Positions 1 through 25,370 of a stretch of 64,000 nt of DNA are shown here, one piece after another. The first letter of the stretch is position 1, and each line of letters begins with the position of its first letter. The DNA is from an uncultured Vampirovibrionales bacterium (GTDB lineage Bacteria > Cyanobacteriota > Vampirovibrionia > Vampirovibrionales > Vampirovibrionaceae): positions 203,321-267,320 of the forward strand of contig CAYMIG010000001.1 in the NCBI GenBank assembly GCA_964390635.1, given 5' to 3'. The position numbers were made by a program, and so were the translations under genes. The notes under the pieces are model-generated. The model was given only the letters and a program-made list of their open reading frames with translations. It ran no database searches and was not told the origin of the DNA.

Positions 1-676
1 CGACGGCAAAGCAAAAGGTCACCTGCTTGCCGTCCATCACCAGCGAGGCGTTCCCGGTCACGGCAAAGCCCGCCGCCGCCAGTTTTTTCTTTTCTCCCTC
101 GATGGAGGTACTGACCAGGGCCAGGCAGGGGAAGCCGCCGTCATCCAGGCGGGGAGGCCGGGCCGGGGCCTCGTCGGCGGGCTCGATAAGCAGGTACAGG
201 GGCGTGGCCTGCAAGGGGGTTTGCAGGCTCAGCCAGGTGCCCGGAAAATTGGGGTACCTGGGTTCGGTGGGCTGGAAACCCAGCAGCCGCCAAAAGGCCA
301 CGGATTCTTCCGGCTTGGGGCTGGCGCAGGCCAGGGTGTCCAGGCGAAAATCGGGGGCTGTGGCCACAACGCGGCCATGCGCGTTGAGGGGCGCAAAGGC
401 CGGCAAGGCGGCGTCGGTTTCAAAGAGCCCTTGCAGAAATCCCGATTGCGAACCGACGTGGCCATGATCCAGCAGCTCAACGGGGTAGCTGCCCGGCTTT
501 TCCATCAGGCAGGCTGCATGCAAGGGCTGAAAATTCTGCAAAAGCGGCGCTTTCATGGCGGCATTCGCCTTGTCGCGCTCATGGAAAACCTCGCGGTAGC
601 CCAGCGCCCGGAAGTGCTCTTTCTCTGCGTCGATGTCCGTCGCGCTCCAGGCGACGTGATCCGCCTTGATGATCAT
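1..676 (-). CDS. VOC family protein (glyoxalase/bleomycin-resistance/extradiol-dioxygenase fold), 5-prime partial at window edge
   Basis: Manual minus-strand translation from ATG at 676 gives MIIKADHVAWSATDIDAEKEHFRALGYREVFHERDKANAAMKAPLLQNF..., a typical two-module VOC pattern. It stays open to base 2 (no stop), so the C-terminus lies outside the window. Its start overlaps the stop of the upstream ligase gene (ATGA). It is absent from the ORF track because no stop codon is in the window. Confidence 0.5.
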   Translation of the reverse strand, partial: MIIKADHVAWSATDIDAEKEHFRALGYREVFHERDKANAAMKAPLLQNFQPLHAACLMEKPGSYPVELLDHGHVGSQSGFLQGLFETDAALPAFAPLNAHGRVVATAPDFRLDTLACASPKPEESVAFWRLLGFQPTEPRYPNFPGTWLSLQTPLQATPLYLLIEPADEAPARPPRLDDGGFPCLALVSTSIEGEKKKLAAAGFAVTGNASLVMDGKQVTFCFAV

Positions 677-2181
677 GGCAGGGCTGATTGCCGGCTTAGG
701 GCTTGCAAGGCTGGCTTGTCAATCTTCCCGTTGCTGTTCTTGGGCAGGCTTTCCATGGGCATAAAAACATCAATCTTATAGTCGGCGCCCAGTTGCTGGG
801 TCAGGGCCAGGTTCAGCCGCTTCTCGAAATGGCGTGGGTCGTCCAGGCTTCCGCTTACGTAGGCGCAGGCGGTTTTTTCGCCCATCACCTCGTCCGGCAG
901 GCCGTAAACCACCAGTTCATCGCTGAACAGTCCGCTGGAAAGCACGAAGTCCTCAATGCGGCGGGGGCTGAGGTTGACCCCGCCCCGGATGATGAGGTCT
1001 TTCTTGCGCCCGGTGATGAACAGCCGCCCTTGCTCATCCAGCCGTCCCAGGTCGCCTGAGCGGTAGCGGCCCTCCGAGAAGTATGTTTCCGTCTGGTGGT
1101 TCAGGTAGCCCTTGAACATCCAGGGCACGTCCAGCAGGATTTCGCCGTCCTCATCCAGCCTCATGTTCACGCCGGGCAGCAGGCGGCCCACGCTGTTTTC
1201 CGCATGCGGGTGCAGGGGAGCATTGGAGGCGTTGAACAGGGTTTCGGAAAGCCCGTAGCTCTCGTAGAGCGGCAGGTTGTAGCGGGCTTCGAAGCGTTGC
1301 TTCTGGGCTTCGCTAAGGGGGGCGGTGCCCACGCAGCCCACAATCGGGGTTTGGCTGGCGTAATTCACCCCCGCTTCCCCCCGATCCAGCTTCAGCAGCA
1401 ACGAAACGATGGTGGGATTGAACCAGAAGGCGTTGGCCCCGTAGCGAATAGGCTGCTCCCAGAATCGGCTGACCCCACCAATGCTGAACCGCTCGCCCAG
1501 GATGACCTGGCTGCCGGCCAGAAACGGCAGCAGCATCAGGTTGAGGATGCCTGCCATGTAGCTCATGGGCAGGTTGTGGTAGAACCGATGGCTGGGCTGG
1601 AAGTCGAAAAAGGCGTTGAAGGCCAGTGCCGAGCCCGCCAGGTTCGAGAAACTATGACAGACCCCCTTGGGCAGGCCGGTGGAGCCCGACGTGAAGGTGA
1701 TAAGGCTGACCCGATCGAGGTCGGCGGCCAGCCAGGTTTGCCTGAAATCTTGCCAGGGGAGCGTCTGGGCGGGTTCGTCCAGGGCGGCCAGCAGCCGCTG
1801 GGGATTGATGCGGGGCGCATTGCCGCAAACGCCCACGCTTTCCACCATGGCGTCGGCTTCAAACAGCGACATGATGTCGGCAATGCCTTGCTCGCCCTTT
1901 TGGGGATCGATGGGCACGTAGGTCCAGCCGTTCAGCACGCAGGCGAAATACAAAACCGGCATTAGCAGGCTGTTGGGCAGGATGACGGCCAGCCGGGCAT
2001 CCGGTTTCAATCCCGCTTCCCGCAGGATGCGGCTGCACACCTCCACCCGGTGGAAAAATTCAGCCGTGGTCAGTGGTGCCGGGCGGCTCGGGTCAATAAT
2101 AAAGTCGGCATCCCAGCGCCGTTCCAGCAGCCCTTCAAGGCTGGGCGGTGTAAGTGGGTTCTTTGAAGGAGGAGAGGGCAT
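673..2181 (-). CDS. AMP-dependent synthetase/ligase (adenylate-forming enzyme, acyl-CoA synthetase-like)
   Basis: 502-aa ORF with the adenylation core motif TSGSTGLPKGV, plus YGxSE and GDL-like downstream motifs. The start is uncertain; the annotated ATG overlaps the 3-prime end of the upstream aldolase gene by 47 nt. Confidence 0.75.
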   Translation of the reverse strand: MPSPPSKNPLTPPSLEGLLERRWDADFIIDPSRPAPLTTAEFFHRVEVCSRILREAGLKPDARLAVILPNSLLMPVLYFACVLNGWTYVPIDPQKGEQGIADIMSLFEADAMVESVGVCGNAPRINPQRLLAALDEPAQTLPWQDFRQTWLAADLDRVSLITFTSGSTGLPKGVCHSFSNLAGSALAFNAFFDFQPSHRFYHNLPMSYMAGILNLMLLPFLAGSQVILGERFSIGGVSRFWEQPIRYGANAFWFNPTIVSLLLKLDRGEAGVNYASQTPIVGCVGTAPLSEAQKQRFEARYNLPLYESYGLSETLFNASNAPLHPHAENSVGRLLPGVNMRLDEDGEILLDVPWMFKGYLNHQTETYFSEGRYRSGDLGRLDEQGRLFITGRKKDLIIRGGVNLSPRRIEDFVLSSGLFSDELVVYGLPDEVMGEKTACAYVSGSLDDPRHFEKRLNLALTQQLGADYKIDVFMPMESLPKNSNGKIDKPALQALSRQSALP

Positions 2182-3229
2182 CCTGTTCCTTGCCTATGTA
2201 ACTGCCAAAATTGTATTCGCCGAGATACAGGTCGGGATTCTTCTCCAGCCGCTGGGCAATGGCCTCCAGTACATCGGGTTTGACGTCCACCTTGTCCACC
2301 TTGCATAGCTCGATGATGAGCAGCTCCGGGCTGACGCGGTATTTGGCCGAAAATTTCTGGATGTGGTGCATGTAGCTGGAGTGGAAGTCCGCAAAGCCGG
2401 CGACGATATCCAGGGATTCCTTGCCCTTCAGCTTGACCAGGGGCTTGATGAACTTCTTGCCGATTTCCATCACCTTGAGCAGGTTGATGTTCAGGGGAAC
2501 GCCTTTTTTGAGGAGCGCGGCCACCACCAGCTCGGTGGAGGCATTGCCGGCGCTGCGGCCCAGCCCTTGCAGGGAGGTGTCAATCAGCTCGATGCCAAGA
2601 TCTGCGGCGTACAGGGCGTTCGATACGGCAAGCCCTAAGTTGTCATGGCCGTGGAAGCCCACCTTCAGCTCGCTCACCTCGCGGATGGCGTTGAAATAGG
2701 CTTCAATCTGGTGCGGGAACATGCCCCCCGATGAATCCACGATGTACACGCCGTCCACGCCATAAGACTCCGACAGCTTGACCTGCTTGGCAAAGTCCTT
2801 GGGCGCCATGGCATACGACTTCATGTAGTTGGCCATCACGGTCATGCCGTAACCCTTGGCCTTCTCAATGAAGGGGCGCGAGCTTTCCACGCGGGTCACG
2901 TCGGTTCCCACGCGGATGAATTTCATGCCGTATTGCGCGGCCATGTCCAGGTCTTCCAGGCGGGCGATGCCCGGAATGCAGAACATACCCCACTGGGCCT
3001 TCTCTATGGCCCCGGCAGCGGCCATGATGTATTCCTCATCGGTGTGGATGGCCTCGCCATGCCCCATGTTGCTGCCGTTGAAACCGACCCCGTGGCCGAT
3101 TTCGATCCATTCCACGCCCGCAGCCTCCAGCTCCTTGCAGATGACCGCCGTATCAGAGGTGGTAAACGAGAAGTTGACGGCGTAACTGCCGTCACGAAGG
3201 GTGGTATCGAGAATCTGGATGGGAGGCAT
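2135..3229 (-). CDS. HMGL-like (DRE-TIM metallolyase) aldolase, 4-hydroxy-2-oxovalerate aldolase (DmpG/BphI/MhpE)-like
   Basis: 364 aa. N-terminal ILDTTLRDGSYAVNFSF...EIGHGVG matches the pyruvate carboxyltransferase/HMGL-like domain of DmpG-type aldolases. No DmpF-type acetaldehyde dehydrogenase partner is adjacent. Confidence 0.7.
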   Translation of the reverse strand: MPPIQILDTTLRDGSYAVNFSFTTSDTAVICKELEAAGVEWIEIGHGVGFNGSNMGHGEAIHTDEEYIMAAAGAIEKAQWGMFCIPGIARLEDLDMAAQYGMKFIRVGTDVTRVESSRPFIEKAKGYGMTVMANYMKSYAMAPKDFAKQVKLSESYGVDGVYIVDSSGGMFPHQIEAYFNAIREVSELKVGFHGHDNLGLAVSNALYAADLGIELIDTSLQGLGRSAGNASTELVVAALLKKGVPLNINLLKVMEIGKKFIKPLVKLKGKESLDIVAGFADFHSSYMHHIQKFSAKYRVSPELLIIELCKVDKVDVKPDVLEAIAQRLEKNPDLYLGEYNFGSYIGKEQDALSSFKEPTYTAQP

Positions 3230-3382
3230 CGGTTCCGCCTGCTGGTTGCTGGGTCTGGGGAATTCCCCCCAATGGTACTACAAGCCCACCCCGTTTGTCC
3301 CGAAGTGTCCGCAAGCATCCCCGCGGCAAGCCCGAGACCCGCCAGGCGAGAGATTCGGGACGTGTAACGTTTTTAAACGGGG

Positions 3383-4078
3383 CTATTTTTTCCGGCAGAC
3401 CACCAGGTGCCAGTGGTAATCGTAGCCGAAGCACTCGTCATGCACGGAGCCGAAGGTGAACTCCCCAAAGTGGCTGGCGAAGGTGCGCTCAATGTCCGCC
3501 TCGTCCTCGAACATGCGCAGCACTTCGCCGTTGCGCACGTTGAAGGGGTCGTTCTTGATGATCTGGTAGCCGGGCTTCAGCGTTTCGCTGCCCTGGTAGA
3601 TGAAGCAGGTCTTCTTGGGGATGGACATGACCAGGTGGCCGCCCGGCTTGGTGATGCGGGCGAATTCCGCCACGTGGCGATCGAAGTTTCGGTCGGCGCC
3701 CAGGTAGTAGCAGGAATTCCAGGACAGCAGGAAGTCGAAGGTGTTGTCCGCAAAGGGTGTTGTGTCGTTGGTGCCCACTTGCAGGTCGAACTTGGGGGCG
3801 CCCAGCATAGCCAGGTTCTGGCGGGCCTTTTCCACGATGGGCTCGCTTACTTCCACGCCGTAAATATCGAAGCCTAGCGTGCTGAGGAAGTGCAGGTTCA
3901 CCCCGTCGCCGCAGCCGATATCGCAGATCTTCTTGCCCTCGTAGCCCAGATCGCGCAGGTTGAGCCGGGGGTAGGCCCCCTTGAACATGCGAATGACGTA
4001 TTCCGCGGGGTAGGTGAGGTCTTTGTAAGACAGGTACTCCCGGGTCCATTCCTTCTGGAAGTCATAGGTGGTGGTCAT
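3383..4078 (-). CDS. class I SAM-dependent methyltransferase
   Basis: Motif I ICDIGCGDGVNL plus acidic motif II region. The start was chosen at the internal ATG (MTTTYDFQKEW), confirmed as CAT at 4076-4078 on the plus strand. The upstream 50 codons of the ORF look like non-coding read-through. Confidence 0.7.
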   Translation of the reverse strand: MTTTYDFQKEWTREYLSYKDLTYPAEYVIRMFKGAYPRLNLRDLGYEGKKICDIGCGDGVNLHFLSTLGFDIYGVEVSEPIVEKARQNLAMLGAPKFDLQVGTNDTTPFADNTFDFLLSWNSCYYLGADRNFDRHVAEFARITKPGGHLVMSIPKKTCFIYQGSETLKPGYQIIKNDPFNVRNGEVLRMFEDEADIERTFASHFGEFTFGSVHDECFGYDYHWHLVVCRKK

Positions 4079-4305
4079 GCTGTACTCCTTGCCAGTGGCA
4101 CGTGGCCTACTATACTGTGAAGGCGGCATGCAGGCCAGCCTTTTTTTCAGGCGGAATTCCCAGCAGCTTGCTGTCGCCGGCCTTTGGGCGAGCCTTGCCA
4201 CGGACGCGCCCGCTGCCCTCCCCGGTCGCATACGGGACCGTTATACAAACGCCTGTTTTTCAGTTACAATTTCTGGCATTCCCAAAGACCCCGGAGACCC
4301 TTGCA
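4079..4305. promoter_or_regulatory. divergent intergenic/promoter region between the methyltransferase operon (minus) and the pseA-hisHF operon (plus)
   Basis: 227-bp non-coding gap between two divergently transcribed gene sets. GGAGA Shine-Dalgarno 8 nt upstream of the ATG at 4306. Confidence 0.3.
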
Positions 4306-5510
4306 TGCAGGAACTGGAGCGCTGCAGCCGCTGTACCGTCCCACTGACGTGGGAAACCATTTACCTGGACGAGAACGGGGTTTGCAACGTTTGCAACAAC
4401 TGGAGCACCAAGCAGCACAAGATTGACTGGGAGGCTCGCGAGCGTCAGCTTCTGGCCATCTTCGAGGATGTGAAGGCAAAAAAAGCCGATTACGATTGCA
4501 TTCTGCCCTTTAGTGGCGGGAAAGACTCTACTTATACGCTGTATGCCATTGTCAAAAAGTACGGCCTGCGCCCTCTGGTGGTGTCCTTCGACCACGGATT
4601 CTACCGCCCCAAGATGCTGGCCAACCGCACCCGGGTCATCCGCCGCCTGGGCGTGGACATGATCACCATGACGCCCGACTGGCAGGTGGTTAAAAAAATG
4701 ATGGTGGAGGCCCTCATCCGGCGTGGCGACTTCTGTTGGCACTGCCACAACGGTGTGTTTGCCTATCCCATGCAGATGGCCGTCAAGCTGAAGGTGCCGC
4801 TGGTCATCTGGGGCGAAGGTGGCGGCGAGTACGAAGGCTACTTCAAGTTCGAGGACCTGGAAGACACCGACGAGTGGAAGTTCAACCGCCGCATCGTGCA
4901 AGGCATTCGGGCCGTCGATATGGCCGGCTTCATCGGCGAGGACGTCCGCAAGCTGCAGCCTTACATCTATCCCAGCCGCCAGGAGCTGGAGGAGGCCGGC
5001 GTTAAGAGCATCCCGCTGGGCAAGTTCATCCCCTGGGACGTGAAAAAGCAGGTGGAAATCATCCGCCAGGAGCTGGGCTGGGAGCTGGATGAAATCGAAA
5101 GCGGCTTCCCCGGGCCTACTTACGAGAAGATCGAGTGCATGTTCCAGGGCGTGCGCGATTATGCCAAGTACCTCAAGCGGGGTTTCTCCCGCATCACGCA
5201 TCTTACCTCGCTGGATATCCGCCATGGGCGCATGGATCGCGACGAAGCCATGCGCCACATCGAGCAACTGGAGCACCGCAAGCCCAAAAGCCTTTCGGTA
5301 TTCCTGGAATATACCGGCCTGAGCGAGGCGGAGTTCAACGAAATCATCCTGCAGCACGTCATTGCCCCGGCCCAGCCCATCGACCCCGCCACCATCCCCG
5401 AGGGCGAGGCCCTGCCGGATCAGGATCTGTGGTTCCGGGATCCCGCCGATGCCGGTTGCGGTACCTGCCATAGCAACGGCTGCGGCGGCGCGCTCCCGCT
5501 GGAAGTCTGA
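4306..5510 (+). CDS. pseA: N-acetyl sugar amidotransferase (PP-loop ATP pyrophosphatase; PseA/WbuX/LfnA family) for acetamidino-sugar formation
   Basis: PP-loop motif ILPFSGGKDST; N-terminal Cys-rich segment (CSRCTVPLTW...CNVCNNW) typical of this family. Followed immediately by HisH/HisF paralogs as in WbuXYZ-type modules. The start was moved to the ATG at 4306 with an SD. Confidence 0.75.
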
Positions 5511-5539
5511 AACTGAAACCCGTCGATAGAGGAATTTCC

Positions 5540-6907
5540 ATGTCCCCCACCCAAACGCAAGCCAAGTCCGCCACCCGTACCTCCATGCTGGAGCTGCTCC
5601 GGAAGATTTACGGGTTTCGCTGGGCGCCCGTCTCCGAGGAAACCGATTGGGGCAACGCGGTGCTGTGCCAGGAGTTGCCTTTCCAGGTGCATGAATACCC
5701 TTCGGGCTTGGAATTCAACGGCTGGGTGGTTCCGCAGAAGTGGAAACCCGTGAAAGCCGAAATCTGGAAGGACGGCGAGCTGATTTACGACGGCATGCAA
5801 AGCCCCCTGGGCGTGGTGGGCTATGCCGATTCTTTCAACGGCAAAGTCAGTGGCCGGGAGCTGAAAGAGCACCTCTGTTACCATCCCAACTTCCCCAATG
5901 CGCTGATTTACCACTGCGACTACTACTATAAACCCTGGCGGCGTACCTGGGGGATGAGCGTGACCCACAACTTCTTCAAAACCATTGAGGATGACGCGGA
6001 ATACGAGGTCAACCTGCAGACCGTGTTTGAGGACGGCACCCTCAAGGTGCTTGACTACTACCTGCCAGGCGAATCCGAGGAGACCATTATCCTTAACAGC
6101 CACAATTGCCATACCGGCCAGGCCAATGATGATATCGCCGGCGTGGTAGTGGGTGTGGAAGTGCTGCGTCGACTGGCCGAAAAGCCCAAGCGCCGCTACA
6201 GCTACCGGCTTATTGTGACCGCCGAGCACATCGGCACGGTGTTTTACCTGCATAGCCTGACGCCGGAGCAGATTGGCAAGTTCAAATACGGCATGTTCCT
6301 TGAAATGCTGGGCAACAAGAACCGTTTCGCCTTCCAGGAGTCGTTTACCGGCACCAGCGATCTGGATCGGGCCGTGCACAACTACATGCGCTATCACCAC
6401 GCCGACTATCACAGCGATCGCTTCCGCAAGATCATCGGCAACGACGAGACCGTGTGGGAAGCCCCCGGCTACGAGATTCCCTGTATCTCGCTTTCCCGCT
6501 GGCCGTACCTCGAATACCACTCCAGCATGGACACCGACGACATCATCCACGAGGAAATGCTGGAGGAGGCCACCAACGCGGTGCTGGGCTACCTGGAAAT
6601 CCTGGAAACCAACGCCGTGATGCACCGCCACTTTGACGGGCTGGTGTGCCTCAGCAATCCCAAGTACGATTTGTACGTCTCGCCGGGCGATCCCAGCATC
6701 AACCCGATGGTGCCCGAGGAGCAGCACCGCTGGAACTACCTGATGAACTGCATTACCCGCCATTTTGACGGGCGCACCACCATTCTGGACATTGCCGAAA
6801 AATACGACCAAAACTACTTTAACGTGCTGGAGTATGTGCGCAAGTTCGAGGAAAAGGGCCTGGTCACCATCGAACCCGCCCTGCCGCCCCGGGAGGCCAG
6901 CCGATGA
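5540..6907 (+). CDS. M28-peptidase-fold / DUF4910-like domain protein found in polysaccharide loci
   Basis: 455 aa. Central segment NCHTGQANDDIAGVVVGVEVLRRL resembles the M28 aminopeptidase-like metal-site region of DUF4910 proteins. C-terminal ~80 aa look like a winged-helix. Family call is from memory and motif only. Confidence 0.4.
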   Translation: MSPTQTQAKSATRTSMLELLRKIYGFRWAPVSEETDWGNAVLCQELPFQVHEYPSGLEFNGWVVPQKWKPVKAEIWKDGELIYDGMQSPLGVVGYADSFNGKVSGRELKEHLCYHPNFPNALIYHCDYYYKPWRRTWGMSVTHNFFKTIEDDAEYEVNLQTVFEDGTLKVLDYYLPGESEETIILNSHNCHTGQANDDIAGVVVGVEVLRRLAEKPKRRYSYRLIVTAEHIGTVFYLHSLTPEQIGKFKYGMFLEMLGNKNRFAFQESFTGTSDLDRAVHNYMRYHHADYHSDRFRKIIGNDETVWEAPGYEIPCISLSRWPYLEYHSSMDTDDIIHEEMLEEATNAVLGYLEILETNAVMHRHFDGLVCLSNPKYDLYVSPGDPSINPMVPEEQHRWNYLMNCITRHFDGRTTILDIAEKYDQNYFNVLEYVRKFEEKGLVTIEPALPPREASR

Positions 6908-7581
6908 GCGTGACGGTCAACACCGCCGTTTCCGCCCAGGCGGAAATGCCCGGCGCATGTAGTCGCACCCGGGTGGTGGGCATCATCAATTCCGGGCTGG
7001 GCAATGTGGGTTCCGTGGCCAGCGCGTTCGAGTTTTACCGCCATCCGGTGCGGCTGATGAGCGATCCCCGCGAGCTGGCCGAAGCCGACGTGCTGGTGCT
7101 GGCCGGCGTGGGCAACTTTGCCGCCGCCATTAAGCGGCTGGAGGACATGGGCATGGTGGATGCCCTGAAAACCCAGGTGCTGGAACACCATAAGCCCCTC
7201 ATGGGTATTTGCCTCGGCATGCAACTGATGGCCGATCGCAGCCTGGAGGACGGCGAACATGCCGGCCTGGGCTTCATTTCCGGTGATGTGGTCAAAATCG
7301 AGGGCGACAACCTGCGGGTGCCGCACATCGGCTGGAACCAGGCCGTGCCGCGCGAAACGGCCCTGTTTCAGGGTATCCGCTACGGTTCGTTCTATTTTAT
7401 GCACAGCTACCACTTTATCCCGCGCAACCCCGACGATATCCTGGCCATCACGCAGTATGGCCCGCTTCAAGTGGTCTCCGCCGTGCGCCGGGGCAATATC
7501 CTGGGGGTGCAGTTCCACCCGGAAAAAAGCCAGGGCGATGGTTTGCGCATTATCCGCAACTTCATGGAGAGCCTGTCATGA
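6904..7581 (+). CDS. hisH: imidazole glycerol phosphate synthase HisH-like glutamine amidotransferase paralog (WbuY-type)
   Basis: Class-I GATase pattern GIINSGLGNVGSV...LVLAGVGNF...GICLGMQLM...HIGWN..FHPEKS. ATGA overlap with the upstream gene. Sits in a glycan locus next to an amidotransferase, not in a his operon. Confidence 0.8.
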   Translation: MSVTVNTAVSAQAEMPGACSRTRVVGIINSGLGNVGSVASAFEFYRHPVRLMSDPRELAEADVLVLAGVGNFAAAIKRLEDMGMVDALKTQVLEHHKPLMGICLGMQLMADRSLEDGEHAGLGFISGDVVKIEGDNLRVPHIGWNQAVPRETALFQGIRYGSFYFMHSYHFIPRNPDDILAITQYGPLQVVSAVRRGNILGVQFHPEKSQGDGLRIIRNFMESLS

Positions 7582-8357
7582 GCGTGGCCGGCGCGGTACT
7601 GACCAAGCGCATCTTTCCGCTCTTTCTGCTGAAGGGCGCCCGGCTGGTGAAAGGCACCTGTTTTGGCGACTTCAAGGACGTGGGCGATCCCGTTTCGCAA
7701 GGCATGATTTTCGATGCCCAGGGCGCGGACGAAATCGCCATCGTGGATGTCGAGGCGTCCCGCCAGGATCGGCTCATCGATACCGCCCTCATCCAGCGGA
7801 TGATTGACTCCTGCAAACTGCCTATCGCCGTGGGCGGCGGCATTCGCTCGGTAAAGGACGCCCAGGCCTGCTTTAACGCCGGGGCGGACAAGATTATCCT
7901 GAACACCCAGGCGGTGCTCAATCCCGCCCTGGTGAAGGAGCTGGCCGCCGAGTTCGGCGCCCAGGCGGTGCTGGCCTCCGTGGACGTGCGTCGCGCCCCG
8001 GATGGCCGCTACGAGGTCTACGTGCTCTCCGGCACCCGCAAGATTGACCAGCCCTTCGATGCGGTCATCGATACGCTGGTGGCGGCGGGCATCGGCGAGC
8101 TGATGGTGACCGCCATCGACCGCGAAGGCACGCTGCAAGGCTTCGATATCGGTATGTACCGCGCATTGCGTAGCCGGGTGAACGTGCCGCTCATCGCTTC
8201 GGGCGGGGCGGGCAACTACGATCACCTGGTGGAGCTCTTCCGCCAGGCCGATTGCGACGCCTGCGCCCTGGGCAAGATGGTTTCCCTGCGGGATTACGAT
8301 ATTGTCCGCATCAAGTCCTATCTGACAGGAAGAAAGGTCCCGGTACGCGATGCTTGA
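7578..8357 (+). CDS. hisF: imidazole glycerol phosphate synthase HisF-like cyclase paralog (WbuZ-type)
   Basis: TIM-barrel HisF pattern RIFPLFLLKGARLVKG...DEIAIVDVEAS...AVGGGIRS...GADKIILNT...ASGGAG. ATGA overlap with the hisH-like gene. Confidence 0.8.
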   Translation: MSVAGAVLTKRIFPLFLLKGARLVKGTCFGDFKDVGDPVSQGMIFDAQGADEIAIVDVEASRQDRLIDTALIQRMIDSCKLPIAVGGGIRSVKDAQACFNAGADKIILNTQAVLNPALVKELAAEFGAQAVLASVDVRRAPDGRYEVYVLSGTRKIDQPFDAVIDTLVAAGIGELMVTAIDREGTLQGFDIGMYRALRSRVNVPLIASGGAGNYDHLVELFRQADCDACALGKMVSLRDYDIVRIKSYLTGRKVPVRDA

Positions 8358-8907
8358 TCTGAAAACCGGTGGCGACGCCATGGCCGCCTGGCGCACGGAG
8401 CGAATCCACCTGCGGCTGCTCTCCCCGGAGGACGTCACCGAGGCCTACGTGGCCTGGCTGATGAACCCCGTAGTGAACCGATACCTGGAAAACCGTTGGT
8501 CGGCCCAGACCTTGGAAAGTGTCAAGTCTTACGTGGCCGCCATGAACGCCAGCAGCCATGATTACATGTTCGGCATTTTCCTGAACGATACCGGCGAGCA
8601 CATCGGCAACATCAAGGTGGGCGGCGTGAACTGGATTCACCGCTACGGCGATGTGGGCCTGCTGATTGGCGAGCCCAAGGCCTGGGGCCAGGGCTACGGC
8701 ACCGAGGCCATCGCGCTGGCCACCGCGTTCGCTTTCCGCGAGTTGAGCCTCAACAAGCTGATTGCGGGTATCTACGCCAACAACCCCGGCTCGTATAAGG
8801 CATTCATGAAAGCCGGCTATCGCGAGGTAGGGCGCATGGAGAAGCACCGCCTGAGCCAGGGCGAGCTGGTGGACGAGATCCTGGTGGAAAAACTACGGGA
8901 CGCGTAA
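8350..8907 (+). CDS. GNAT family N-acetyltransferase (RimJ/RimL-like)
   Basis: GNAT motif A region IGNIKVGGVNWIHRYGDVGLLIGEPKAWGQGYGTEA and the N-terminal TERIHLRLLSPED pattern. The start could instead be the ATG at 8380. Confidence 0.7.
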   Translation: MLDLKTGGDAMAAWRTERIHLRLLSPEDVTEAYVAWLMNPVVNRYLENRWSAQTLESVKSYVAAMNASSHDYMFGIFLNDTGEHIGNIKVGGVNWIHRYGDVGLLIGEPKAWGQGYGTEAIALATAFAFRELSLNKLIAGIYANNPGSYKAFMKAGYREVGRMEKHRLSQGELVDEILVEKLRDA

Positions 8908-8912
8908 GGCAT

Positions 8913-9728
8913 ATGAGCGAATCCAGCCCGATTGTCGCCGTCCTGCAAGCCCGGTTTTCGTCGCGTCGCCTGCCCGGCAAAGTCATGCGGCCCATCCTGG
9001 GCGAGCCAATGCTCTACCGTCAGATTGAGCGCATTCTGCGGGTTCGGCAAATCGATCGGCTGGTTGTGGCCACCAGTACCGATGCCACCGACGATCCCAT
9101 CGCCCGGATGGCTGAAGCCAAGGGCGTGGCCTGCTTTCGTGGCAGCCTGGACGACGTGCTGGATCGCTTCTACCAGGCCGCCCTGCCGTACCGGCCCATC
9201 CATGTGGTGCGGCTCACCGGGGATTGCCCCCTGGCCGATCCGGCGGTGATTGACGCCGCCATCGCCTTCCACCTGGAAAGTGGCAAAGACTACACCAGCA
9301 ACGCGCTGGAGCCCACTTTTCCCGACGGCCTGGATGTGGAGGTGATGCGCTTTGCGGCTCTCGAAAGTGCATGGCGCGAGGCCAAACTGCCTTCCCAGCG
9401 GGAGCATGTGACCCCCTTCATCTACCAGCACCCGGAAAACTTCGCTATTGGGCATTTCAGCCAGCCGGAAAACCTCTCCCAACTGCGCTGGACGGTGGAC
9501 GAGCCCGAGGATTTCGACCTGGTCACGGCTGTTTTTGAGCACCTGTATCCCCAAAAGCCGGATTTCGGGATGCGGGACGTGCTGGCCTTCCTGGATGCCA
9601 ACCCCGCCCTGGGCAACCGGAACAGCCGCTTCCGCCGCAACGAGGGCTATGACCAATCGCTGGCCGCGGATGCCGCCGCTGCGCAACAGAATTCCACCAT
9701 TCAGACTTCCCTGGAGGCGACCCCATGA
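8913..9728 (+). CDS. pseF: acylneuraminate-type cytidylyltransferase (CMP-nonulosonic acid synthetase, PseF/SpsF-like)
   Basis: N-terminal IVAVLQARFSSRRLPGKVMRPI matches the ARxxSxRLPGK nucleotide-binding signature of CTP_transf_3 enzymes. Located in a Pse locus with ATGA coupling to the next gene. Confidence 0.55.
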   Translation: MSESSPIVAVLQARFSSRRLPGKVMRPILGEPMLYRQIERILRVRQIDRLVVATSTDATDDPIARMAEAKGVACFRGSLDDVLDRFYQAALPYRPIHVVRLTGDCPLADPAVIDAAIAFHLESGKDYTSNALEPTFPDGLDVEVMRFAALESAWREAKLPSQREHVTPFIYQHPENFAIGHFSQPENLSQLRWTVDEPEDFDLVTAVFEHLYPQKPDFGMRDVLAFLDANPALGNRNSRFRRNEGYDQSLAADAAAAQQNSTIQTSLEATP

Positions 9729-10777
9729 CCACCATGACCATCGGCGCGGTTGAGAAAGTGATATTGTTTGGCGGCGGCCCCGCCATGCTGGCCTTTGCCG
9801 AGGAAAGCATCCGCCTGGGCCTTGCCCCTACGGTGTTTGCCGTTCCTCGTCACCTGGAAGAGGCCGTGGATTCCGACGGCAATACCCTGGAGCAGGTTCT
9901 TCTGCAAGCCGGCATTCCGTGTCACCGGGCTAGTGACGTAAACGGAAACCCGCAACTGGCCGCCCTGACCGCTGACGGCAAGGCTATGGGCATTGGCTTG
10001 GGCGAAGCCTACACCTTCAATCGCGACACCATCGAGGCGTTCGACGGCAAGCTGTTTGATTTCATGATCATCCGCCTGCCCCAGTATCGTGGCGGGGCGC
10101 ACTTTACCTGGCAGATCCTGCGAGGGCATCGCATCGGCTGCTGGAATATCCAGCTGATTAACGAGGAAATGGTGCCCGGGGTGTACGATTCCGCCCCCAT
10201 CATCAAGACCCGGGAGTTCATCATTCCGCAATCGGCGCGCATTCCGGCGGATTTCTTCGAGGTCTACCGCGAGGAGCAACTGGTGCTTTACCGGGAATTC
10301 GTGGCCGATATCCGTGCCGGGAAATCCTTTGAGCTGGCGTACTTACAGGAAAACTTTAGCCAGTATTACCCCCGCCTGCATACCAAGTCGCAAGGGCTCA
10401 TCGACTGGCGCTGGAGCGGCCCGGAAATCGAGCGCTTCATCTGCGCTTTCGACAACCCCTACCCCGGCGCCTCCACTTTTCTCGATGGGCAGCGCCTGTT
10501 CCTGAAGGACTGCCAGCTGGATGCCTCCGAAGGGGACTTCCACCCTTTTATGGCGGGCATGATCTACCGCATCCACGGCGATGCGGTCTTTGTGGGCGTC
10601 CGGGGCGGCGGGCTGATCGTCCGGGATATCCGCGATGAAGCGGGCACCGATGTCAGGCCCCGGCTGAAAGTGGGTCAGCGCCTGTACACCTCCTCGGCCC
10701 AGCTGGAGGCGGCCATGCTGTTCTCCGCCGATTACGACGCCGAGGGCCTGAAGCCCGCCCCCGCACCGGTTTCCTGA
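9725..10777 (+). CDS. formyltransferase family protein (Fmt/ArnA-N-like), putative sugar N-formyltransferase
   Basis: 350 aa. N-terminal Rossmann-like formyl_trans_N pattern (KVILFGGG...), then IIRLPQYRGGAHFTWQI resembling the Fmt-family catalytic loop, then a C-terminal domain. Confidence 0.55.
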   Translation: MTTMTIGAVEKVILFGGGPAMLAFAEESIRLGLAPTVFAVPRHLEEAVDSDGNTLEQVLLQAGIPCHRASDVNGNPQLAALTADGKAMGIGLGEAYTFNRDTIEAFDGKLFDFMIIRLPQYRGGAHFTWQILRGHRIGCWNIQLINEEMVPGVYDSAPIIKTREFIIPQSARIPADFFEVYREEQLVLYREFVADIRAGKSFELAYLQENFSQYYPRLHTKSQGLIDWRWSGPEIERFICAFDNPYPGASTFLDGQRLFLKDCQLDASEGDFHPFMAGMIYRIHGDAVFVGVRGGGLIVRDIRDEAGTDVRPRLKVGQRLYTSSAQLEAAMLFSADYDAEGLKPAPAPVS

Positions 10778-10878
10778 ACGGAAACAATTGTATAGATTGT
10801 CTGGGTTTGCTTCCATTACTGTAGTAAAATGCTAGGCAATCCCCGCACGCCGCCAACCGACCCCGGGCCACTGAACCG

Positions 10879-12666
10879 ATGGACTTGAAAAAAGACAAAG
10901 AGCACTATCTCAGGCTCATAGCATACATGAAGCCTCACCGAAAGCGGTTTTTCATCTCGGTGTTGTCTTCCATCCCGGCCTCCTCCCTGAACGGGGTGAT
11001 GGCTTTTGCCGCCGGCCCCTTGCTGGACAGGCTTTTAAAGGAGCAGGACTACATGATCCTGCTGGCCGTGCCGGCCCTGGTGTTTACGGCCATGGTGCTG
11101 CAAGGCGTTTTCGAGTACATCAACGGCTACACCTCCAGCTATCTCAGCTACAGCATCAGCCGGGACATCCAGCAGGACCTGTTCAACAAGCTGATTACGC
11201 TGGATCTGGCCTTCTTCAAGTCCCGCAACACGGGCGAAATCTTCACCCGCTTCTACACCGACTGCAACCGCCTGCAACAGGCCATCGTCTCCAATTTGCA
11301 GGATTTCTCCATCCAGGTGTTCAGCTTCCTGTTCCTGGCCGGGGTGCTGTTTTACCGCAACTGGCAGTTCGCCTTTATTTCCATCGCCATTATCTCGATG
11401 ATCTGCATTCCGCTGTATTTCATCTCGCAGCGCATCCGCCGGCTGGATCACCAGCTGCGCGAGGTGGCCGCCCGCATGGTGAACATCTTCAGCGAGTACA
11501 TCCTGGGAGTGAAAGAAATCAAAAGCTTCCAGCTGAACGGCTACCAGAAGAAGCGTTTCGAGAAGACGCAGGTGGATTACTTCTCCAGCCTGCTGTCCTC
11601 GGCCAAGGCCGGCATGCTGCTGCGCCCGCTGATGCAGCTGATTGCCGCCACCGGCTTCTGCACCATCTTCATCCTGGGCCTGTACCAGGTGCGGGACGGG
11701 CACATGAGCATCGGCGACTTCACCTCCTTCCTGCTGGCGCTGGTGATGCTGTACAAGCCGGTGAAAACCATCGGCGGCATCTTCAGCCAGGTGCAGCGCA
11801 TTATGGCCCCGGCGGAGCGGGTTTTCGAGCTGCTGGACACCGAGCCCGGCATGGTGGAATCCAGCGAAGGCGTTCAGGTGCCGGACTTCGAGTCGCTGGA
11901 ATTCCGCAACGTGTGGTTCGAGTACAAGCCCGGCAAGCCGGTGCTGAAGGACATCAATTTCTCTCTGAAACAGGGCGAGGTGCTGGCCCTGGTGGGCGCC
12001 AGCGGCGGCGGCAAAACCACCCTCGCCGACATGGTCTCCCGCTTTATGGATCCCACGGAAGGCGAAATTTTGCTCAACGGGCTCGATTTGAAAACGGTGT
12101 CCGTCAAGTCGCTGCGCCGCCTGATCGGGTTGGTTTCACAGGAAACCCTGCTGTTTGACGCGACCATCCGCGAAAACATCCGCCTGGGCCGCCTGGATGC
12201 CACCGACGAGGAAATCGAGCAGGCTGCCCGGGACGCCTGCCTGGGCGACTGGATCGATTCGCTGGCCGATGGGCTGGATACCAAGGTGGGCGAGCGGGGC
12301 GGCATGGTCTCCGGCGGGCAGAAGCAGCGGATTGCCCTGGCCCGGGCCTTCCTGAAGCGCAGCCCGGTGCTGGTGCTGGATGAGGCCACCAGCGCACTCG
12401 ACAACGAATCCGAGGCCCTCATCCAGGAGGCCACCAAGCGCCTGATGGAAAACCGCACGGTCATCGTCATCGCCCACCGGCTGTCCACGGTGCGCTATGC
12501 GGACCGCATCATGGTGCTTTCCGACGGGCAGGTCATCGAAACCGGCAGCCACGACGAGCTTCTGGAGAAAAAGGGCATGTACCACAAGCTGTATCACTTG
12601 CAGTTCCGCCACGAGGAGCCGGGCTTTCTGGAGCGCCTGAAAACCTCGGCGGGCCTGGCGGGGTGA
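10879..12666 (+). CDS. ABC transporter, fused permease/ATPase (MsbA/PglK-like lipid or lipid-linked glycan exporter)
   Basis: 595 aa. Six predicted TM helices, then Walker A GASGGGKTT, ABC signature VSGGQKQRIALARA, Walker B VLVLDEATSALD and an H-loop. Confidence 0.85.
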   Translation: MDLKKDKEHYLRLIAYMKPHRKRFFISVLSSIPASSLNGVMAFAAGPLLDRLLKEQDYMILLAVPALVFTAMVLQGVFEYINGYTSSYLSYSISRDIQQDLFNKLITLDLAFFKSRNTGEIFTRFYTDCNRLQQAIVSNLQDFSIQVFSFLFLAGVLFYRNWQFAFISIAIISMICIPLYFISQRIRRLDHQLREVAARMVNIFSEYILGVKEIKSFQLNGYQKKRFEKTQVDYFSSLLSSAKAGMLLRPLMQLIAATGFCTIFILGLYQVRDGHMSIGDFTSFLLALVMLYKPVKTIGGIFSQVQRIMAPAERVFELLDTEPGMVESSEGVQVPDFESLEFRNVWFEYKPGKPVLKDINFSLKQGEVLALVGASGGGKTTLADMVSRFMDPTEGEILLNGLDLKTVSVKSLRRLIGLVSQETLLFDATIRENIRLGRLDATDEEIEQAARDACLGDWIDSLADGLDTKVGERGGMVSGGQKQRIALARAFLKRSPVLVLDEATSALDNESEALIQEATKRLMENRTVIVIAHRLSTVRYADRIMVLSDGQVIETGSHDELLEKKGMYHKLYHLQFRHEEPGFLERLKTSAGLAG

Positions 12667-12676
12667 GGGTGCGGCC

Positions 12677-14020
12677 ATGATCAACACCTTGCTCTGGGGT
12701 TTCACCAAGGAGTATTCGCCCACCGTGCGCTACCTGCGCGAGGGGGGCGTGTGCGACGTGCGGGTGTGGATCGGCTCCGACAAGGAATGCACGCACTCGC
12801 GCAAAGACTTCATGACCATGCGGTTCAAGTACGAATCGCCCGAGCTTTGCGATGAGGCGGTCTACGAGACGGTCTTCCGCAACTACTACGCCTACCTCGA
12901 TCGCACCAACACCTTCAACCGCATGAACCAGCACAACATTTACGAGTACCTGAACCTGTTCAACCGGCAAATCAACTACTTCTACCACCTGCTGAAAAGC
13001 GAGGGCATCCAGCTGGTGGTGCTGAACCGCCCGCCGCACTACGGGCCGGATACCATCCTCTACGAAGTTGCCCGGGCTATGGGGCTCAAGATCCTCATTT
13101 TATGCCCCTCGTTTTTCGAGGACCGCTTCTGGTACTGCTTCGACATGGACGACTATGGCCGCTTCGCCGACGTGCCCGAGGTGCTGCCCTACCCGGAAGT
13201 GACCCTGGAGAAAAAGCATGAAAAATTCATTCCCTACCACCTGAACATCCCGGAGTACCGCTATTCCGTATGGCAGGCCATCCGGGACTTCAGCCAGGGC
13301 AAGCTGACCGCCTTCCAGAAGCTGGCCGAGTACCGCAAGTTCAAGCGCAACCTGAACGCCATGATCGATCCCCACATCGATCTTTCGCAAAAATTCGTCT
13401 ACTTCCCGCTGCACCTGCAACCTGAACTGTCCACCTCCACGCTGGGCGGCCTGTACTGCGACCAGGTACTGGCGCTGGAGCGCCTGTCCCGCCTGCTGCC
13501 GGACGATTTCTACATTTATGCCAAAGACCACCTGCTGCAAACCGAGTTTATGCGGGACGAGAATTATTTCGACCGCCTGCGGGCCATTCCCAACCTCAGG
13601 CTGACCCCCACCACCATGAGCACTTACGAGTTGATCCGGCATTCGCAGTTTGTAGCCACCATTGCCGGCACCGTGGGCTGGGAGGCCATTACTGGCGGCA
13701 AGAACGTGCTGCTGTTTGGCCAGACCTGGTATATGACCCTGCCGGGCGTTTTCCAGTTTAACGACACTTTCCGGCTGGAGCACATCCTGAATTACCAGCT
13801 GGCGCATGACACCCTGGAGCGCGCCGTGGGCAAGCTACAAAGCCGCATGGGCCGGGGTGTGCTTTCGCATGAATATTACCCGCTGAAGGATTTCGATGCC
13901 GAGCGCAACGGCCAGCGCCTTGCGGAGTTCCTGCATCAGGCCGCGGGGCACCTTTTCGGGGCATCCGGCCCGACTTCCCAAAGCGCCCGGCATGATGGCC
14001 GGTTGAGCGTTCCCCGCTAA
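12677..14020 (+). CDS. KpsS/KpsC-like (Capsule_synth, GT107-like) putative CMP-ulosonic acid (pseudaminyl) transferase
   Basis: 447 aa. Segment FVYFPLHLQPELSTSTLGG resembles the conserved PLHxQxDSQ-like region of KpsS/KpsC family retaining transferases. The family assignment is by motif recollection only. Confidence 0.4.
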   Translation: MINTLLWGFTKEYSPTVRYLREGGVCDVRVWIGSDKECTHSRKDFMTMRFKYESPELCDEAVYETVFRNYYAYLDRTNTFNRMNQHNIYEYLNLFNRQINYFYHLLKSEGIQLVVLNRPPHYGPDTILYEVARAMGLKILILCPSFFEDRFWYCFDMDDYGRFADVPEVLPYPEVTLEKKHEKFIPYHLNIPEYRYSVWQAIRDFSQGKLTAFQKLAEYRKFKRNLNAMIDPHIDLSQKFVYFPLHLQPELSTSTLGGLYCDQVLALERLSRLLPDDFYIYAKDHLLQTEFMRDENYFDRLRAIPNLRLTPTTMSTYELIRHSQFVATIAGTVGWEAITGGKNVLLFGQTWYMTLPGVFQFNDTFRLEHILNYQLAHDTLERAVGKLQSRMGRGVLSHEYYPLKDFDAERNGQRLAEFLHQAAGHLFGASGPTSQSARHDGRLSVPR

Positions 14021-15570
14021 AAGTAGTTGGCCAGGCCGGGCACCCGGGATTGCCGGTTGACCGGGCGGGGCCGGATGCCGGACCAGCGACAGTGTTCTTC
14101 ATCCAGCATGAGCTTTTGATTGGAAGTACTGCAGGTATAAAGCGGAACCCAGGGCTCTTTTTCCCAGGGACGCACGTTGCCCTCGTAATCCAGCGGCATG
14201 GGGATGGCGCTGACCAGCACGGTGATTTCGCGCAGCCGCTGTTTTTGCTCCGGGGTCAGGTGGGAGTATTCCAGGTTCACCAGCCCCCGCAGCTGCCGCT
14301 TGTCCCCGGAGGTCAGCATGTAGCCCGGCTTGATGCTCAGCTTGTGGTAAAAGTTGGCCACCCGGTAGGCCACAATGCCGGGGAAGCGTGGATAGTAATG
14401 CATGCCCGGATAGCAGGTTTTGTCCGGTTTGAACATGGCAAACGGTTCCAGGAGGGTGCCGTCGTCCAGCTTGCTTTGCAGCCGGTAGGCCACCCCACCA
14501 ATGATGTGCACTTTGGTGAACAGTTCGCCGCTCAGCTCACGCACGGTGTAAAAGGTCAGCTTTTCCAGCAGCGGGTGATCGGCGGTGTTTTTCCACAGGG
14601 CCGATTCGACCACGCTTGGGGGCAGAACCAGCCGCTTCAGCATGGGCTTGCTGAAAGAATAGAGCGACAACACCATGAAAAACACCAGCAGCGGCGCCAC
14701 CGCTTTTTCCAGGCGGGGGTTGGCCGGAACGGTGACCGGATTGTAGTGCAATTGCGGAGGCAGGCGTTTTTCCAGGAAGCCGGGCAGCTTGGTCATGCTT
14801 AAGAATAGTATTCCGTAGAACTGGCCCACAAAGCCGATAAGCCCCAGGGAGGCCGGAAAGATGAGCCCGCCGAAAAACACGAACGTGGCCAGCGCGGCAA
14901 CCCATCGAAGACGTTCGAACAGGAAGACCAGCAGGCCCACTTCCAGCACGATGGTGGCGTGGTTGATCAGCACCATGAGCCAGCGTTGATCGAGCATGGG
15001 GCTTGTCCAGTCCTGTTTTATCCACGGCTGCATGTAGAAGTAGTAAAATCCGTTGCCTTGCTGCCACAGCGGATCCAGCCATTTGAACACGCCCGCCGAG
15101 AAGAACAGCAAGCCGGCGTTAAAGCCCAGCATGAACACGGGCCAGACGGGCTGTAATGGCACGGGTGCCTCGGGCGATTTGCGCTTGCGCAGCCAGGCTT
15201 CCAGCGACCATACGCCGTCCAGTTTCAGGAACATGGACCAGAAGGAGATGAGCATGAGCAGGTCTTCCTGCGCCGACAGGCCCAGCGTGCGTCCCTTGCC
15301 CAGAGTAAGCATCAGCAGCACGTGCTGGATGACACTGGTGACCCGCCCGCCGATGCCCAGCGTCCAGACGAAAATGGCCACCAGCCAAAGGTGCCGGACC
15401 ACGTTGATAAAGGCCACCGTGCGTTCGGAGTGCCCATACCAGACCAGGGGCATCACTTCGGCGAACTTGATCCAGTAGTAAATCAGGAACAGCCCGAAGC
15501 CGATCCGGTAAATTGCCAGCCAATACGGGTTGGCGCTGGTTTTAATCAGCTTGTCCAGGAATTTGTTCAT
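14017..15570 (-). CDS. HTTM domain (vitamin K-dependent gamma-carboxylase-like) integral membrane protein
   Basis: 517 aa. N-terminal ~300 aa are polytopic membrane with the HTTM-like pattern (PYWLAIYRIGFGLFLIYYW ...). The C-terminal ~200 aa are soluble. Adjacent to a DCC-family gene, the usual HTTM partner. Confidence 0.5.
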   Translation of the reverse strand: MNKFLDKLIKTSANPYWLAIYRIGFGLFLIYYWIKFAEVMPLVWYGHSERTVAFINVVRHLWLVAIFVWTLGIGGRVTSVIQHVLLMLTLGKGRTLGLSAQEDLLMLISFWSMFLKLDGVWSLEAWLRKRKSPEAPVPLQPVWPVFMLGFNAGLLFFSAGVFKWLDPLWQQGNGFYYFYMQPWIKQDWTSPMLDQRWLMVLINHATIVLEVGLLVFLFERLRWVAALATFVFFGGLIFPASLGLIGFVGQFYGILFLSMTKLPGFLEKRLPPQLHYNPVTVPANPRLEKAVAPLLVFFMVLSLYSFSKPMLKRLVLPPSVVESALWKNTADHPLLEKLTFYTVRELSGELFTKVHIIGGVAYRLQSKLDDGTLLEPFAMFKPDKTCYPGMHYYPRFPGIVAYRVANFYHKLSIKPGYMLTSGDKRQLRGLVNLEYSHLTPEQKQRLREITVLVSAIPMPLDYEGNVRPWEKEPWVPLYTCSTSNQKLMLDEEHCRWSGIRPRPVNRQSRVPGLANYF

Positions 15571-22181: not shown

Positions 22182-23348
<1,167 letters not shown>

Positions 23349-24510: not shown

Positions 24511-25370
24511 AGCTTGGCCTGGGAACCGTACAGTTCGGCCTGGATTACGGCATTACCAACCCACAAGGCCAGGTTCCACCGGATGAAGTGGGGGAAATTT
24601 TGCGGTTGGCCGCCCAGGCGGGGATCGATCTGCTGGATACCGCCGCGCAATACGGTGAAAGCGAGTCTGTGCTTGGCCAGGCCATCCCTTCGGGCGCACC
24701 GTTCCGGATTGTCACCAAGACGCCTTCCTTCAACACTGCCGCGATTACCTCTGTACAGGTAGAGGCGATGGAAACCACCCTGGCACAATCGCTGCAGCGG
24801 TTGAACCACGCCGCCGTCTATGGCTGGCTACTGCATCAGGTGGATGATCTCTTTTCTGATGGTGGGGACAGGCTGCTGGATGCGCTTTATGGTGCCAGGG
24901 ACAATGGACAGGTGGAGAAAATCGGGGTGTCTGTTTATACCGGAGCCCAGATTGACCGGGTCTTGCAGATTTTCACCCCGGATATCGTCCAGCTTCCCAT
25001 CAACCTGCTGGATCAGCGCCTGATTCACAGCGGTCACCTGGCGCGTCTCAAGTCGCTGGGTGTGGAAATACACGCGCGTTCGTTGTTTCTCCAGGGCGTG
25101 TTGCTGAACCCCTCCGAAGCGCCTGCCTGGATGGGCGACGCCTTGGATGCCTACGCTGCCTGGCTTGCCCGGGAAACGATCCCCCCCCTGCAAGCCGCGC
25201 TAAGCTTTGCCGCCGGACTTCCTGAAATTGATGTGGCCCTGGTGGGTGTTTGCTCCCGGGCCCAGTTGCGGGAGATTCTGGATGCATTTCAGCGGATTGG
25301 GCGGTATGATTTTAGTCGGTTCGCCTGTGCCGACGAGCGGGTTGTGAATCCCGCCCTCTGGCCCCGCTGA
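24507..25370 (+). CDS. aldo/keto reductase family oxidoreductase
   Basis: MKLGLGTVQFGLDYG...IDLLDTAAQYG is an AKR N-terminal signature. ATGA overlap with pseC. Confidence 0.7.
   Translation: MKLGLGTVQFGLDYGITNPQGQVPPDEVGEILRLAAQAGIDLLDTAAQYGESESVLGQAIPSGAPFRIVTKTPSFNTAAITSVQVEAMETTLAQSLQRLNHAAVYGWLLHQVDDLFSDGGDRLLDALYGARDNGQVEKIGVSVYTGAQIDRVLQIFTPDIVQLPINLLDQRLIHSGHLARLKSLGVEIHARSLFLQGVLLNPSEAPAWMGDALDAYAAWLARETIPPLQAALSFAAGLPEIDVALVGVCSRAQLREILDAFQRIGRYDFSRFACADERVVNPALWPR

Follow-up and report, generated by a model that had tools for sequence, protein, structure and literature searches.

We analysed a 64,000-nt stretch of contig CAYMIG010000001.1 from an uncultured Vampirovibrionales bacterium, hereafter the window, in whose positions all coordinates are given. 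Our subject is an operon of seven closely packed plus-strand genes at 4305-10777, which lies in a cluster for a pseudaminic acid (Pse) surface glycan. It encodes an amidotransferase (WbuX), a HisH glutaminase and a HisF paralog, which together would form an acetamidino group, and it also encodes a protein of family DUF4910 between WbuX and hisH. An initial annotation of this DNA had placed DUF4910 in the same amidotransfer step. We consider it fairly probable that DUF4910 instead works outside amidotransfer and edits another N-acyl group of the sugar. The locus as a whole belongs to a known kind of cluster. The inference of an acetamidino nonulosonate is well supported, whereas a role of DUF4910 in amidotransfer is not supported. 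Its partners are a formyltransferase-fold protein without the catalytic His (FmtL) and N-acyltransferases, its family member Cj1295 serves a 5-N-acyl variant of Pse, and the ATGA overlap with hisH reflects a shared operon only.

Distribution of DUF4910 among related loci

Related loci were collected in two sets. The WbuX-anchored set held 80 metagenome loci (42-69% identity), among which 20 had at least 5 kb on both sides and 12 had at least 8 kb. The DUF4910-anchored set held 80 genome loci. Clade A of DUF4910 was defined by 48-64% identity (23 loci flanked by 6 kb or more on each side) and clade B comprised the distant relatives (35-41% identity). Where a single locus has to be named, it is given as L with a number.

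In the WbuX-anchored loci with at least 5 kb of flanks, HisH was present in 17/20 and HisF in 18/20, and DUF4910 was present in only 3/20. With flanks of at least 8 kb, DUF4910 occurred in one of the 12 loci. Because DUF4910 is scarce at close WbuX loci that keep HisH and HisF, the amidotransfer module seems to work without it in most close relatives. The initial annotation had itself named the absence of DUF4910 from homologous loci as its refuting result, and DUF4910 was indeed absent from most of them.

The clade-A DUF4910 loci gave the complementary picture. All 23 well-flanked loci encoded FmtL, 22 a GNAT N-acyltransferase, 21 WbuX, and 20 each HisH and HisF. The immediate neighbour of DUF4910 was usually FmtL or GNAT, and neither WbuX nor HisH was ever less than 300 nt away. 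At an early stage we supposed that DUF4910 was tied to GNAT alone and not to WbuX; this idea was softened in view of the frequent presence of WbuX in clade A.

The order WbuX-DUF4910-hisH had been called unusual, and the comparison bore this out. WbuX lay directly upstream of DUF4910 in none of the 160 related loci, and no sampled locus had DUF4910 between WbuX and hisH. The placement of DUF4910 in the window is therefore best explained by a local rearrangement. Other rearrangements were seen in the window: the cytidylyltransferase gene is displaced too, and the Pse core is distant from the operon. A pattern count had returned seven loci with WbuX-DUF4910-HisH, but this was an artefact, as WbuX of these clade-B loci lies 3.6-8.2 kb upstream with unrecognised genes between.

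Partners of DUF4910

In FmtL the Fmt/ArnA fold is complete, with the C-terminal domain present. The catalytic Asn-x-His is replaced by Asp-Phe-Met (D112-F-M114) and, of the triad, Asp155 alone is kept; the same was found in 40 orthologs. Compared with the sugar N-formyltransferases (ArnA N-domain, PseJ and FdtF) and with Fmt, it thus shares the fold but not the catalytic motif. A new invariant His occurs in the motif RGGAH of the window protein and of those from L003-L046, L112 and L161. Such His-less copies of FmtL were found only in loci that also encode DUF4910 (42/42), and the L003-type and L089-type clusters differ only by the pair of FmtL and DUF4910.

The link with N-acyltransferases is seen in both clades. 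DUF4910 is fused to a GNAT in two homologs, P0116 and P0120, and the GNAT domain of P0116 is 35% identical to the GNAT of the window at 8350-8907 (E=8e-34). In clade B, an AAC(3)-type N-acetyltransferase gene lies less than 200 nt from DUF4910 in nine loci, seven of which have no WbuX. More remote relatives on plasmids (27-32% identity) belong to unrelated sugar loci.

Upstream of the operon, a ligase-aldolase-methyltransferase set on the minus strand (673-4078) is divergent from WbuX. The set recurs beside WbuX or DUF4910 in L034, L047, L059, L061 and L106, and it may serve the supply or modification of an alternative N-acyl group.

Several features of the related loci were observed in addition. 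Locus L083 carries two fusions, at 10001-11839 and 12808-14874, which are DUF4910::GNAT and CTP_transf_3::class-III aminotransferase. Together with HisF::WbuX and PseG::GNAT, these make four kinds of fusion that link steps of the pathway. Clade-B loci (L052 at 1157-9993, L058, L060 and L063-L065) encode NeuB, an AsnB-type amidotransferase, a second WbuX paralog and an AAC(3)-like acetyltransferase, and also three to four methyltransferases and a DnaJ-domain protein. They represent a different, more heavily methylated nonulosonate pathway.

The amidotransfer module

WbuX matched TIGR03573 with 339.7 bits (cut-off 203.2) over profile positions 3-343 of 344. The two signatures of the N-acetyl sugar amidotransferase (NASAT) family, a PP-loop and a zinc-binding tetracysteine motif CxxC...[GN]xCxxC, were defined from the Legionella structure 8WEX (PMC10607449). 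Both are present in the window protein, as SGGKDS at residues 70-75 and as C7-S-R-C10 ... G25-V-C27-N-V-C30, and the residues of the tetracysteine motif are all invariant in the homolog alignment. The protein also matched 8WEX (LpNASAT) directly (E=2e-30). Its C-terminal tail (residues ~385-401, window 5457-5507) is rich in Cys (CGTCHSNGCGG) and extends past the end of the TIGR03573 model.

HisH scored 200.4 bits against TIGR01855 (cut-off 105.4), and its triad C103/H205/E207 is intact and kept in 37 linked homologs. For the HisF paralog the top model was WbuZ (TIGR03572) with 234.3 bits, yet this is below the equivalog cut-off of 299.7; the scores against AglZ/HisF2 (NF038364, 220.5 bits, cut-off 310) and housekeeping HisF (TIGR00735, 222.4 bits, cut-off 294.55) were below their cut-offs as well. 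In the alignment to Thermotoga maritima HisF, Asp11 corresponds to Leu17 and Asp130 is kept as D136, and the ammonia-gate residues R11, E52, K105 and E174 are retained. HisF Asp11 is essential for the cyclase reaction. The paralog, without this residue, therefore cannot be a housekeeping hisF. Among the HisF copies that accompany WbuX in related loci, 39/39 have a non-acidic residue at the Asp11 position, and the pattern of a lost Asp11 with a retained ammonia gate holds for these homologs too.

These results support the earlier claim that HisH and HisF are dedicated paralogs and, with the PP-loop, the tetracysteine, the glutaminase triad and the ammonia gate all present, the claim of a WbuX/HisH/HisF-type acetamidino module. 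One could still argue that hisH and hisF are housekeeping histidine genes that happen to sit in a glycan cluster, considering their strong matches to his models (200 bits for HisH and 222 bits for HisF). We regard this as extremely improbable: besides the loss of Asp11 here and in all linked homologs and the top score of WbuZ, no further his genes are nearby, and HisH and HisF travel with WbuX across many phyla, and HisF::WbuX fusions exist.

One such fusion, in Leptolyngbya (L052, 12013-14082), supports a direct hand-over of ammonia, although the channelling mechanism itself is taken by analogy. As in the WbpG, WbuX and PseA systems, HisH would release ammonia from glutamine and the HisF barrel would channel it to WbuX. 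WbuX would then convert, in an ATP-dependent reaction, one N-acetyl group of Pse, or of a nucleotide-sugar precursor of Pse, into an acetamidino group.

The substrate

The initial annotation had expected a nonulosonic acid as the substrate, and the gene context supports this. PseB, PseC, PseG and PseI are all encoded in the window, 9-14 kb from the operon, and in related loci the module lies inside Pse operons. The substrate is therefore very likely pseudaminic acid and, judging from the sequence, the product of the module is most likely an acetamidino-pseudaminic acid. The typical order in related loci is PseB PseC AKR WbuX HisH HisF GNAT CTPtr AT3 PseG PseI (AKR, aldo-keto reductase; CTPtr, cytidylyltransferase; AT3, class-III aminotransferase), and the order WbuX-HisH-HisF-GNAT was seen in 15 metagenome loci.

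Canonical PseF and PseH were not detected in the window, where the scores stayed under the cut-offs (just 27 bits for PseF, TIGR03584); an SpsF-like cytidylyltransferase and GNATs are found instead. No second cytidylyltransferase copy was found in the window. In 14 of 19 DUF4910-anchored loci PseG has no fused GNAT, which makes the GNAT gene after hisF the probable source of the PseH-type acetyltransferase in these clusters. The SpsF-like cytidylyltransferase, the aldo-keto reductase and the aminotransferase resembling glutamate-1-semialdehyde (GSA) aminomutase are conserved in these Pse clusters, and the CTP_transf_3::class-III aminotransferase fusion was seen in L083.

The DUF4910 protein

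The protein matched DUF4910 (PF16254) with 175.6 bits (gathering threshold 26.6) and DUF2172 (PF09940) with 55.8 bits (threshold 27), and it had a weak match of 32.9 bits to Peptidase_M28. It also matched CA_C2195 (PDB 3K9T; E=3e-37, ~30% identity), whose crystal structure has an M28-like domain with a single zinc on His189/Asp195/His324 and other residues in place of the catalytic Asp and Glu of M28 (PMC4000134). In the window protein the zinc ligands are kept as H191, D197 and H327, without variation across 22 homologs. G193 and A228 stand where M28 has its catalytic residues, and of the two zinc sites of M28 a single set of ligands is left. PF16221 (HTH_47) was not reported for the window protein, in which the alignment to 3K9T reaches residue 424 (chain residue 414); some homologs carry this domain.

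Two studies bear on the function of the family. From gene neighbourhoods, the authors of the CA_C2195 structure proposed that the protein takes part in making a modified carbohydrate of the cell surface, possibly by transacylation or deacylation (PMC4000134), so the link of DUF4910 to modified-sugar clusters is already published. In Campylobacter jejuni NCTC 11168, Cj1295 is needed for 5-N-(2,3-di-O-methylglyceroyl)-Pse, and the mutant keeps Pse5Ac7Ac and Pse5Ac7Am (PMC3068675, PMC7099621). Its authors proposed that Cj1295 cleaves the 5-acetamido group (PMC3068675). A protein search that we seeded with the Campylobacterales homolog from L035 returned clade-A metagenome proteins only and did not reach Cj1295. 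The neighbourhood of L035, with phosphoribosyl pyrophosphate (PRPP) synthetase and flagellar rod genes, was set aside as uninformative on sugar chemistry.

Possible roles of DUF4910

The 5-N-acetyl group of Pse derives from UDP-GlcNAc, and any other 5-N-acyl group therefore needs a deacetylation. Clan MH includes the small-molecule N-deacylases ArgE and DapE. In the reading that we favour, DUF4910 would be a cytoplasmic, mono-zinc, M28-like enzyme of clan MH and of the CA_C2195/Cj1295 family, acting outside the amidotransfer step. Its most likely target would be the other N-acyl group of the sugar, the 5-N-acetyl that stems from GlcNAc, which it would remove or exchange. For this it would be paired with the His-less FmtL and act together with an N-acyltransferase, thereby allowing another acyl group to be attached, and the DUF4910-FmtL pair might be a self-contained optional add-on to the cluster. 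A more specific form of this idea is a tentative possibility only. DUF4910 and the His-less FmtL might form an obligate two-protein N-acyl-editing enzyme specific to an acetamidino-Pse intermediate; it would strip the 5-N-acetyl, and the resulting amine might take up a new small acyl group or might condense with the adjacent amidine into a cyclic amidine. Such an enzyme would explain why the pair nearly always occurs within WbuX-HisH-HisF clusters, whereas many such clusters are without the pair.

Several points weigh against N-acyl editing by DUF4910. About 90% of the clade-A DUF4910 loci also hold WbuX-HisH-HisF, and in clade B the order DUF4910-hisH-hisF-WbuX recurs in seven loci with a 0-48 nt junction. 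This co-occurrence and this order mean that some functional dependence on the acetamidino sugar is possible. FmtL has no canonical Asn/His, so a re-acylating role for it is doubtful, and the DUF4910 family is without the usual general-base Glu. The window protein is likened to Cj1295 by domain family alone, and we know of no DUF4910 protein with a demonstrated biochemical activity. Moreover, the sequence cannot tell whether N5 or N7 bears the amidine.

The proposal of the initial annotation would make DUF4910 a fourth subunit or helper of amidotransfer, for example in substrate presentation or in ammonia handling between HisF and WbuX. We consider this unlikely, even though DUF4910 is co-operonic with hisH through the ATGA overlap, WbuX is present in 21/23 well-flanked clade-A loci, and clade B has DUF4910 directly before hisH-hisF-WbuX, with a 4-nt overlap in L052. 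As many as 17 of the 20 close WbuX loci have HisH and HisF but no DUF4910, and conversely DUF4910 loci without WbuX exist (L011, L038, L016, L032, L062, many clade-B loci and plasmid pDCAR1). The overlap with hisH has little weight, since all genes of the operon are joined by overlapping junctions. The fusions found join DUF4910 to GNAT and HisF to WbuX, never DUF4910 to WbuX, HisH or HisF. We know of no DUF4910-type gene in the characterised WbuXYZ and WbpG-HisH2F2 systems. In addition, the cj1295 mutant of C. jejuni still makes Pse5Ac7Am (PMC3068675, PMC7099621).

Two further roles were considered. Das et al. put forward the idea of a transacylase, and DUF4910 might accordingly acylate the sugar amine with an amino acid, a peptide or some other acyl group rather than hydrolyse, with the donor possibly bound to the Fmt-like protein. 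The missing general-base Glu and the single zinc would suit such a reaction, and the clan also holds glutaminyl cyclase (PMC4000134). The strict pairing with a protein of the full Fmt/ArnA fold points in the same direction, as do the acyl-activating genes (AMP-ligase, aldolase and methyltransferase) that adjoin the operon here and recur in five other loci. However, the minimal loci L003-L005 have no donor-forming genes, an N-acyltransferase is already encoded alongside DUF4910, and the chemistry is without precedent in the family, so we find a transacylase rather unlikely. It is very unlikely that DUF4910 is a true peptidase acting on a glycoprotein that the pathway targets. The M28-like fold and the weak Peptidase_M28 match would agree with this, but DUF4910 has lost the catalytic Asp and Glu of M28 along with the second-zinc ligands (PMC4000134), DUF4910 is always found among sugar-nucleotide enzymes, and mutation of Cj1295 alters the glycan and not a polypeptide (PMC3068675).

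Comparison with known systems

The module resembles WbuX-WbuY-WbuZ of Escherichia coli O145, WbpG-HisH2-HisF2 of Pseudomonas aeruginosa O5 and PseA with Cj1314c/Cj1315c of C. jejuni. All of them combine a PP-loop/tetracysteine amidotransferase with dedicated HisH and HisF, and they share the lost cyclase Asp of HisF and a predicted acetamidino sugar. In contrast to these systems, the module here comes from an uncultured, GC-rich organism and lies within a Pse cluster, its order is interrupted by DUF4910, and its HisF falls under the curated WbuZ and HisF2 equivalog cut-offs. LpNASAT of Legionella pneumophila (8WEX) belongs to the same NASAT family with both signature motifs, but the match is distant, and LpNASAT functions in the synthesis of a legionaminic acid O-antigen and carries an additional segment at its N terminus (PMC10607449).

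For DUF4910, one of the closest known parallels is Cj1295 of C. jejuni NCTC 11168 (PIRSF015244; PMC3068675), which is of the same domain family and belongs to a Pse locus with amidotransferase, hisH, hisF and N-acetyltransferases. It differs in being far from pseA/hisHF and in being phase-variable. The dimethylglyceroyl group that is the partner acyl of Cj1295 also has genes of the acyl carrier protein (ACP)/FabH type, none of which was seen at the window locus. CA_C2195 of Clostridium acetobutylicum (3K9T; PMC4000134) shares DUF4910 with the DUF2172 insert, the C-terminal region and the His/Asp/His zinc site, but its listed neighbourhood has no amidotransferase and no HisH/HisF.

Significance and possible destination of the glycan

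Nonulosonic acids with unusual N-acyl groups occur on flagella, capsules and O-antigens, where they shape phage and immune recognition. The locus alone adds little to this picture, but the comparative data, with the strict pairing with the His-less FmtL, the GNAT fusions and the independence of the amidotransferase module from DUF4910, name partners of DUF4910 that can be tested. The pairing and the fusions are leads for the chemistry of the Cj1295 family. For genome annotation, the data argue against placing DUF4910 in the ammonia-channelling step.

A scan of the cluster genes at 673-34947 showed no Maf-type flagellin glycosyltransferase. This is a hint that the glycan is capsule-like or lipid-linked and does not decorate flagellin. 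Downstream of the operon, 10879-15570 encodes an MsbA-like ABC exporter, a Capsule_synth (KpsS/C-like) protein and a 517-amino-acid membrane protein without a family match.

Gene layout

The features of the cluster are listed in Table 1. The initial annotation had covered 4306-8357; its four plus-strand genes stand, while its start does not, as the ATG of the amidotransferase is at 4305 and a start at 4306 would be out of frame by one base. The same gene boundaries were called independently on two Logan contigs with identical proteins.

Table 1. Features of the operon and of the surrounding cluster (positions in the window; aa, amino acids).
Feature	Position	Strand	Remarks
AMP-dependent ligase	673-2181	-	Pfam/NCBIfam
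HMGL-type aldolase	2135-3229	-	Pfam/NCBIfam
S-adenosylmethionine (SAM) methyltransferase	3383-4078	-	Pfam/NCBIfam
Divergent intergenic region, two promoter-like sites for the plus-strand operon	4079-4304		Sites 4089-4116 (10/12) and 4242-4270 (9/12)
N-acetyl sugar amidotransferase (NASAT), WbuX/PseA/WbpG type	4305-5510	+	401 aa; TIGR03573
DUF4910/DUF2172 M28-like mono-zinc protein, CA_C2195/Cj1295 family	5540-6907	+	455 aa; Pfam and PDB 3K9T match
HisH-type glutaminase, WbuY equivalent	6904-7581	+	TIGR01855
HisF paralog, WbuZ/HisF2 type, ammonia-channel barrel	7578-8357	+	Best model TIGR03572 (WbuZ)
GNAT N-acyltransferase, PseH-like	8350-8907	+	Acetyltransf_3, 91.4 bits; weak PseH match
SpsF-like cytidylyltransferase, probable CMP-sugar synthetase of the pathway	8913-9728	+	CTP_transf_3, 107.8 bits
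FmtL, formyltransferase-fold protein without catalytic Asn/His (D112-F-M114)	9725-10777	+	
PseI	19615-20739	-	NCBIfam equivalog, 505.8 bits, above cut-off
PseG::GNAT fusion	20664-22181	-	PseG equivalog, 285.6 bits, above cut-off
PseB	22299-23348	+	NCBIfam equivalog, 533.5 bits, above cut-off
PseC	23359-24510	+	NCBIfam equivalog, 557.6 bits, above cut-off
Aldo-keto reductase	24507-25370	+	Pfam
Class-III aminotransferase, GSA-aminomutase-like	25395-26717	+	Pfam

The ATGA overlap between DUF4910 and hisH, which had been taken as a sign of a common step, is real (6904-6907) and is preceded, at a distance of 8 nt, by the Shine-Dalgarno sequence GGGAGG. Further junctions overlap at hisH/hisF (7578-7581), hisF/GNAT (8350-8357) and cytidylyltransferase/FmtL (9725-9728). 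As overlaps run throughout the operon, the coupling is a mark of one operon and not of a special pair of DUF4910 and hisH. A scan for promoters and terminators gave counts not above the shuffled expectation, including in the intergenic region 4079-4304.

Long antisense open reading frames (ORFs) of 323-463 aa were found on the minus strand at 4260-5471, 5420-6811 and 7467-8438 and were rejected as genes on codon-position GC content. The plus-strand genes have a GC content of 0.77-0.81 at third codon positions and of 0.36-0.42 at second positions, which indicates that the antisense frames are shadow ORFs of GC-rich DNA.

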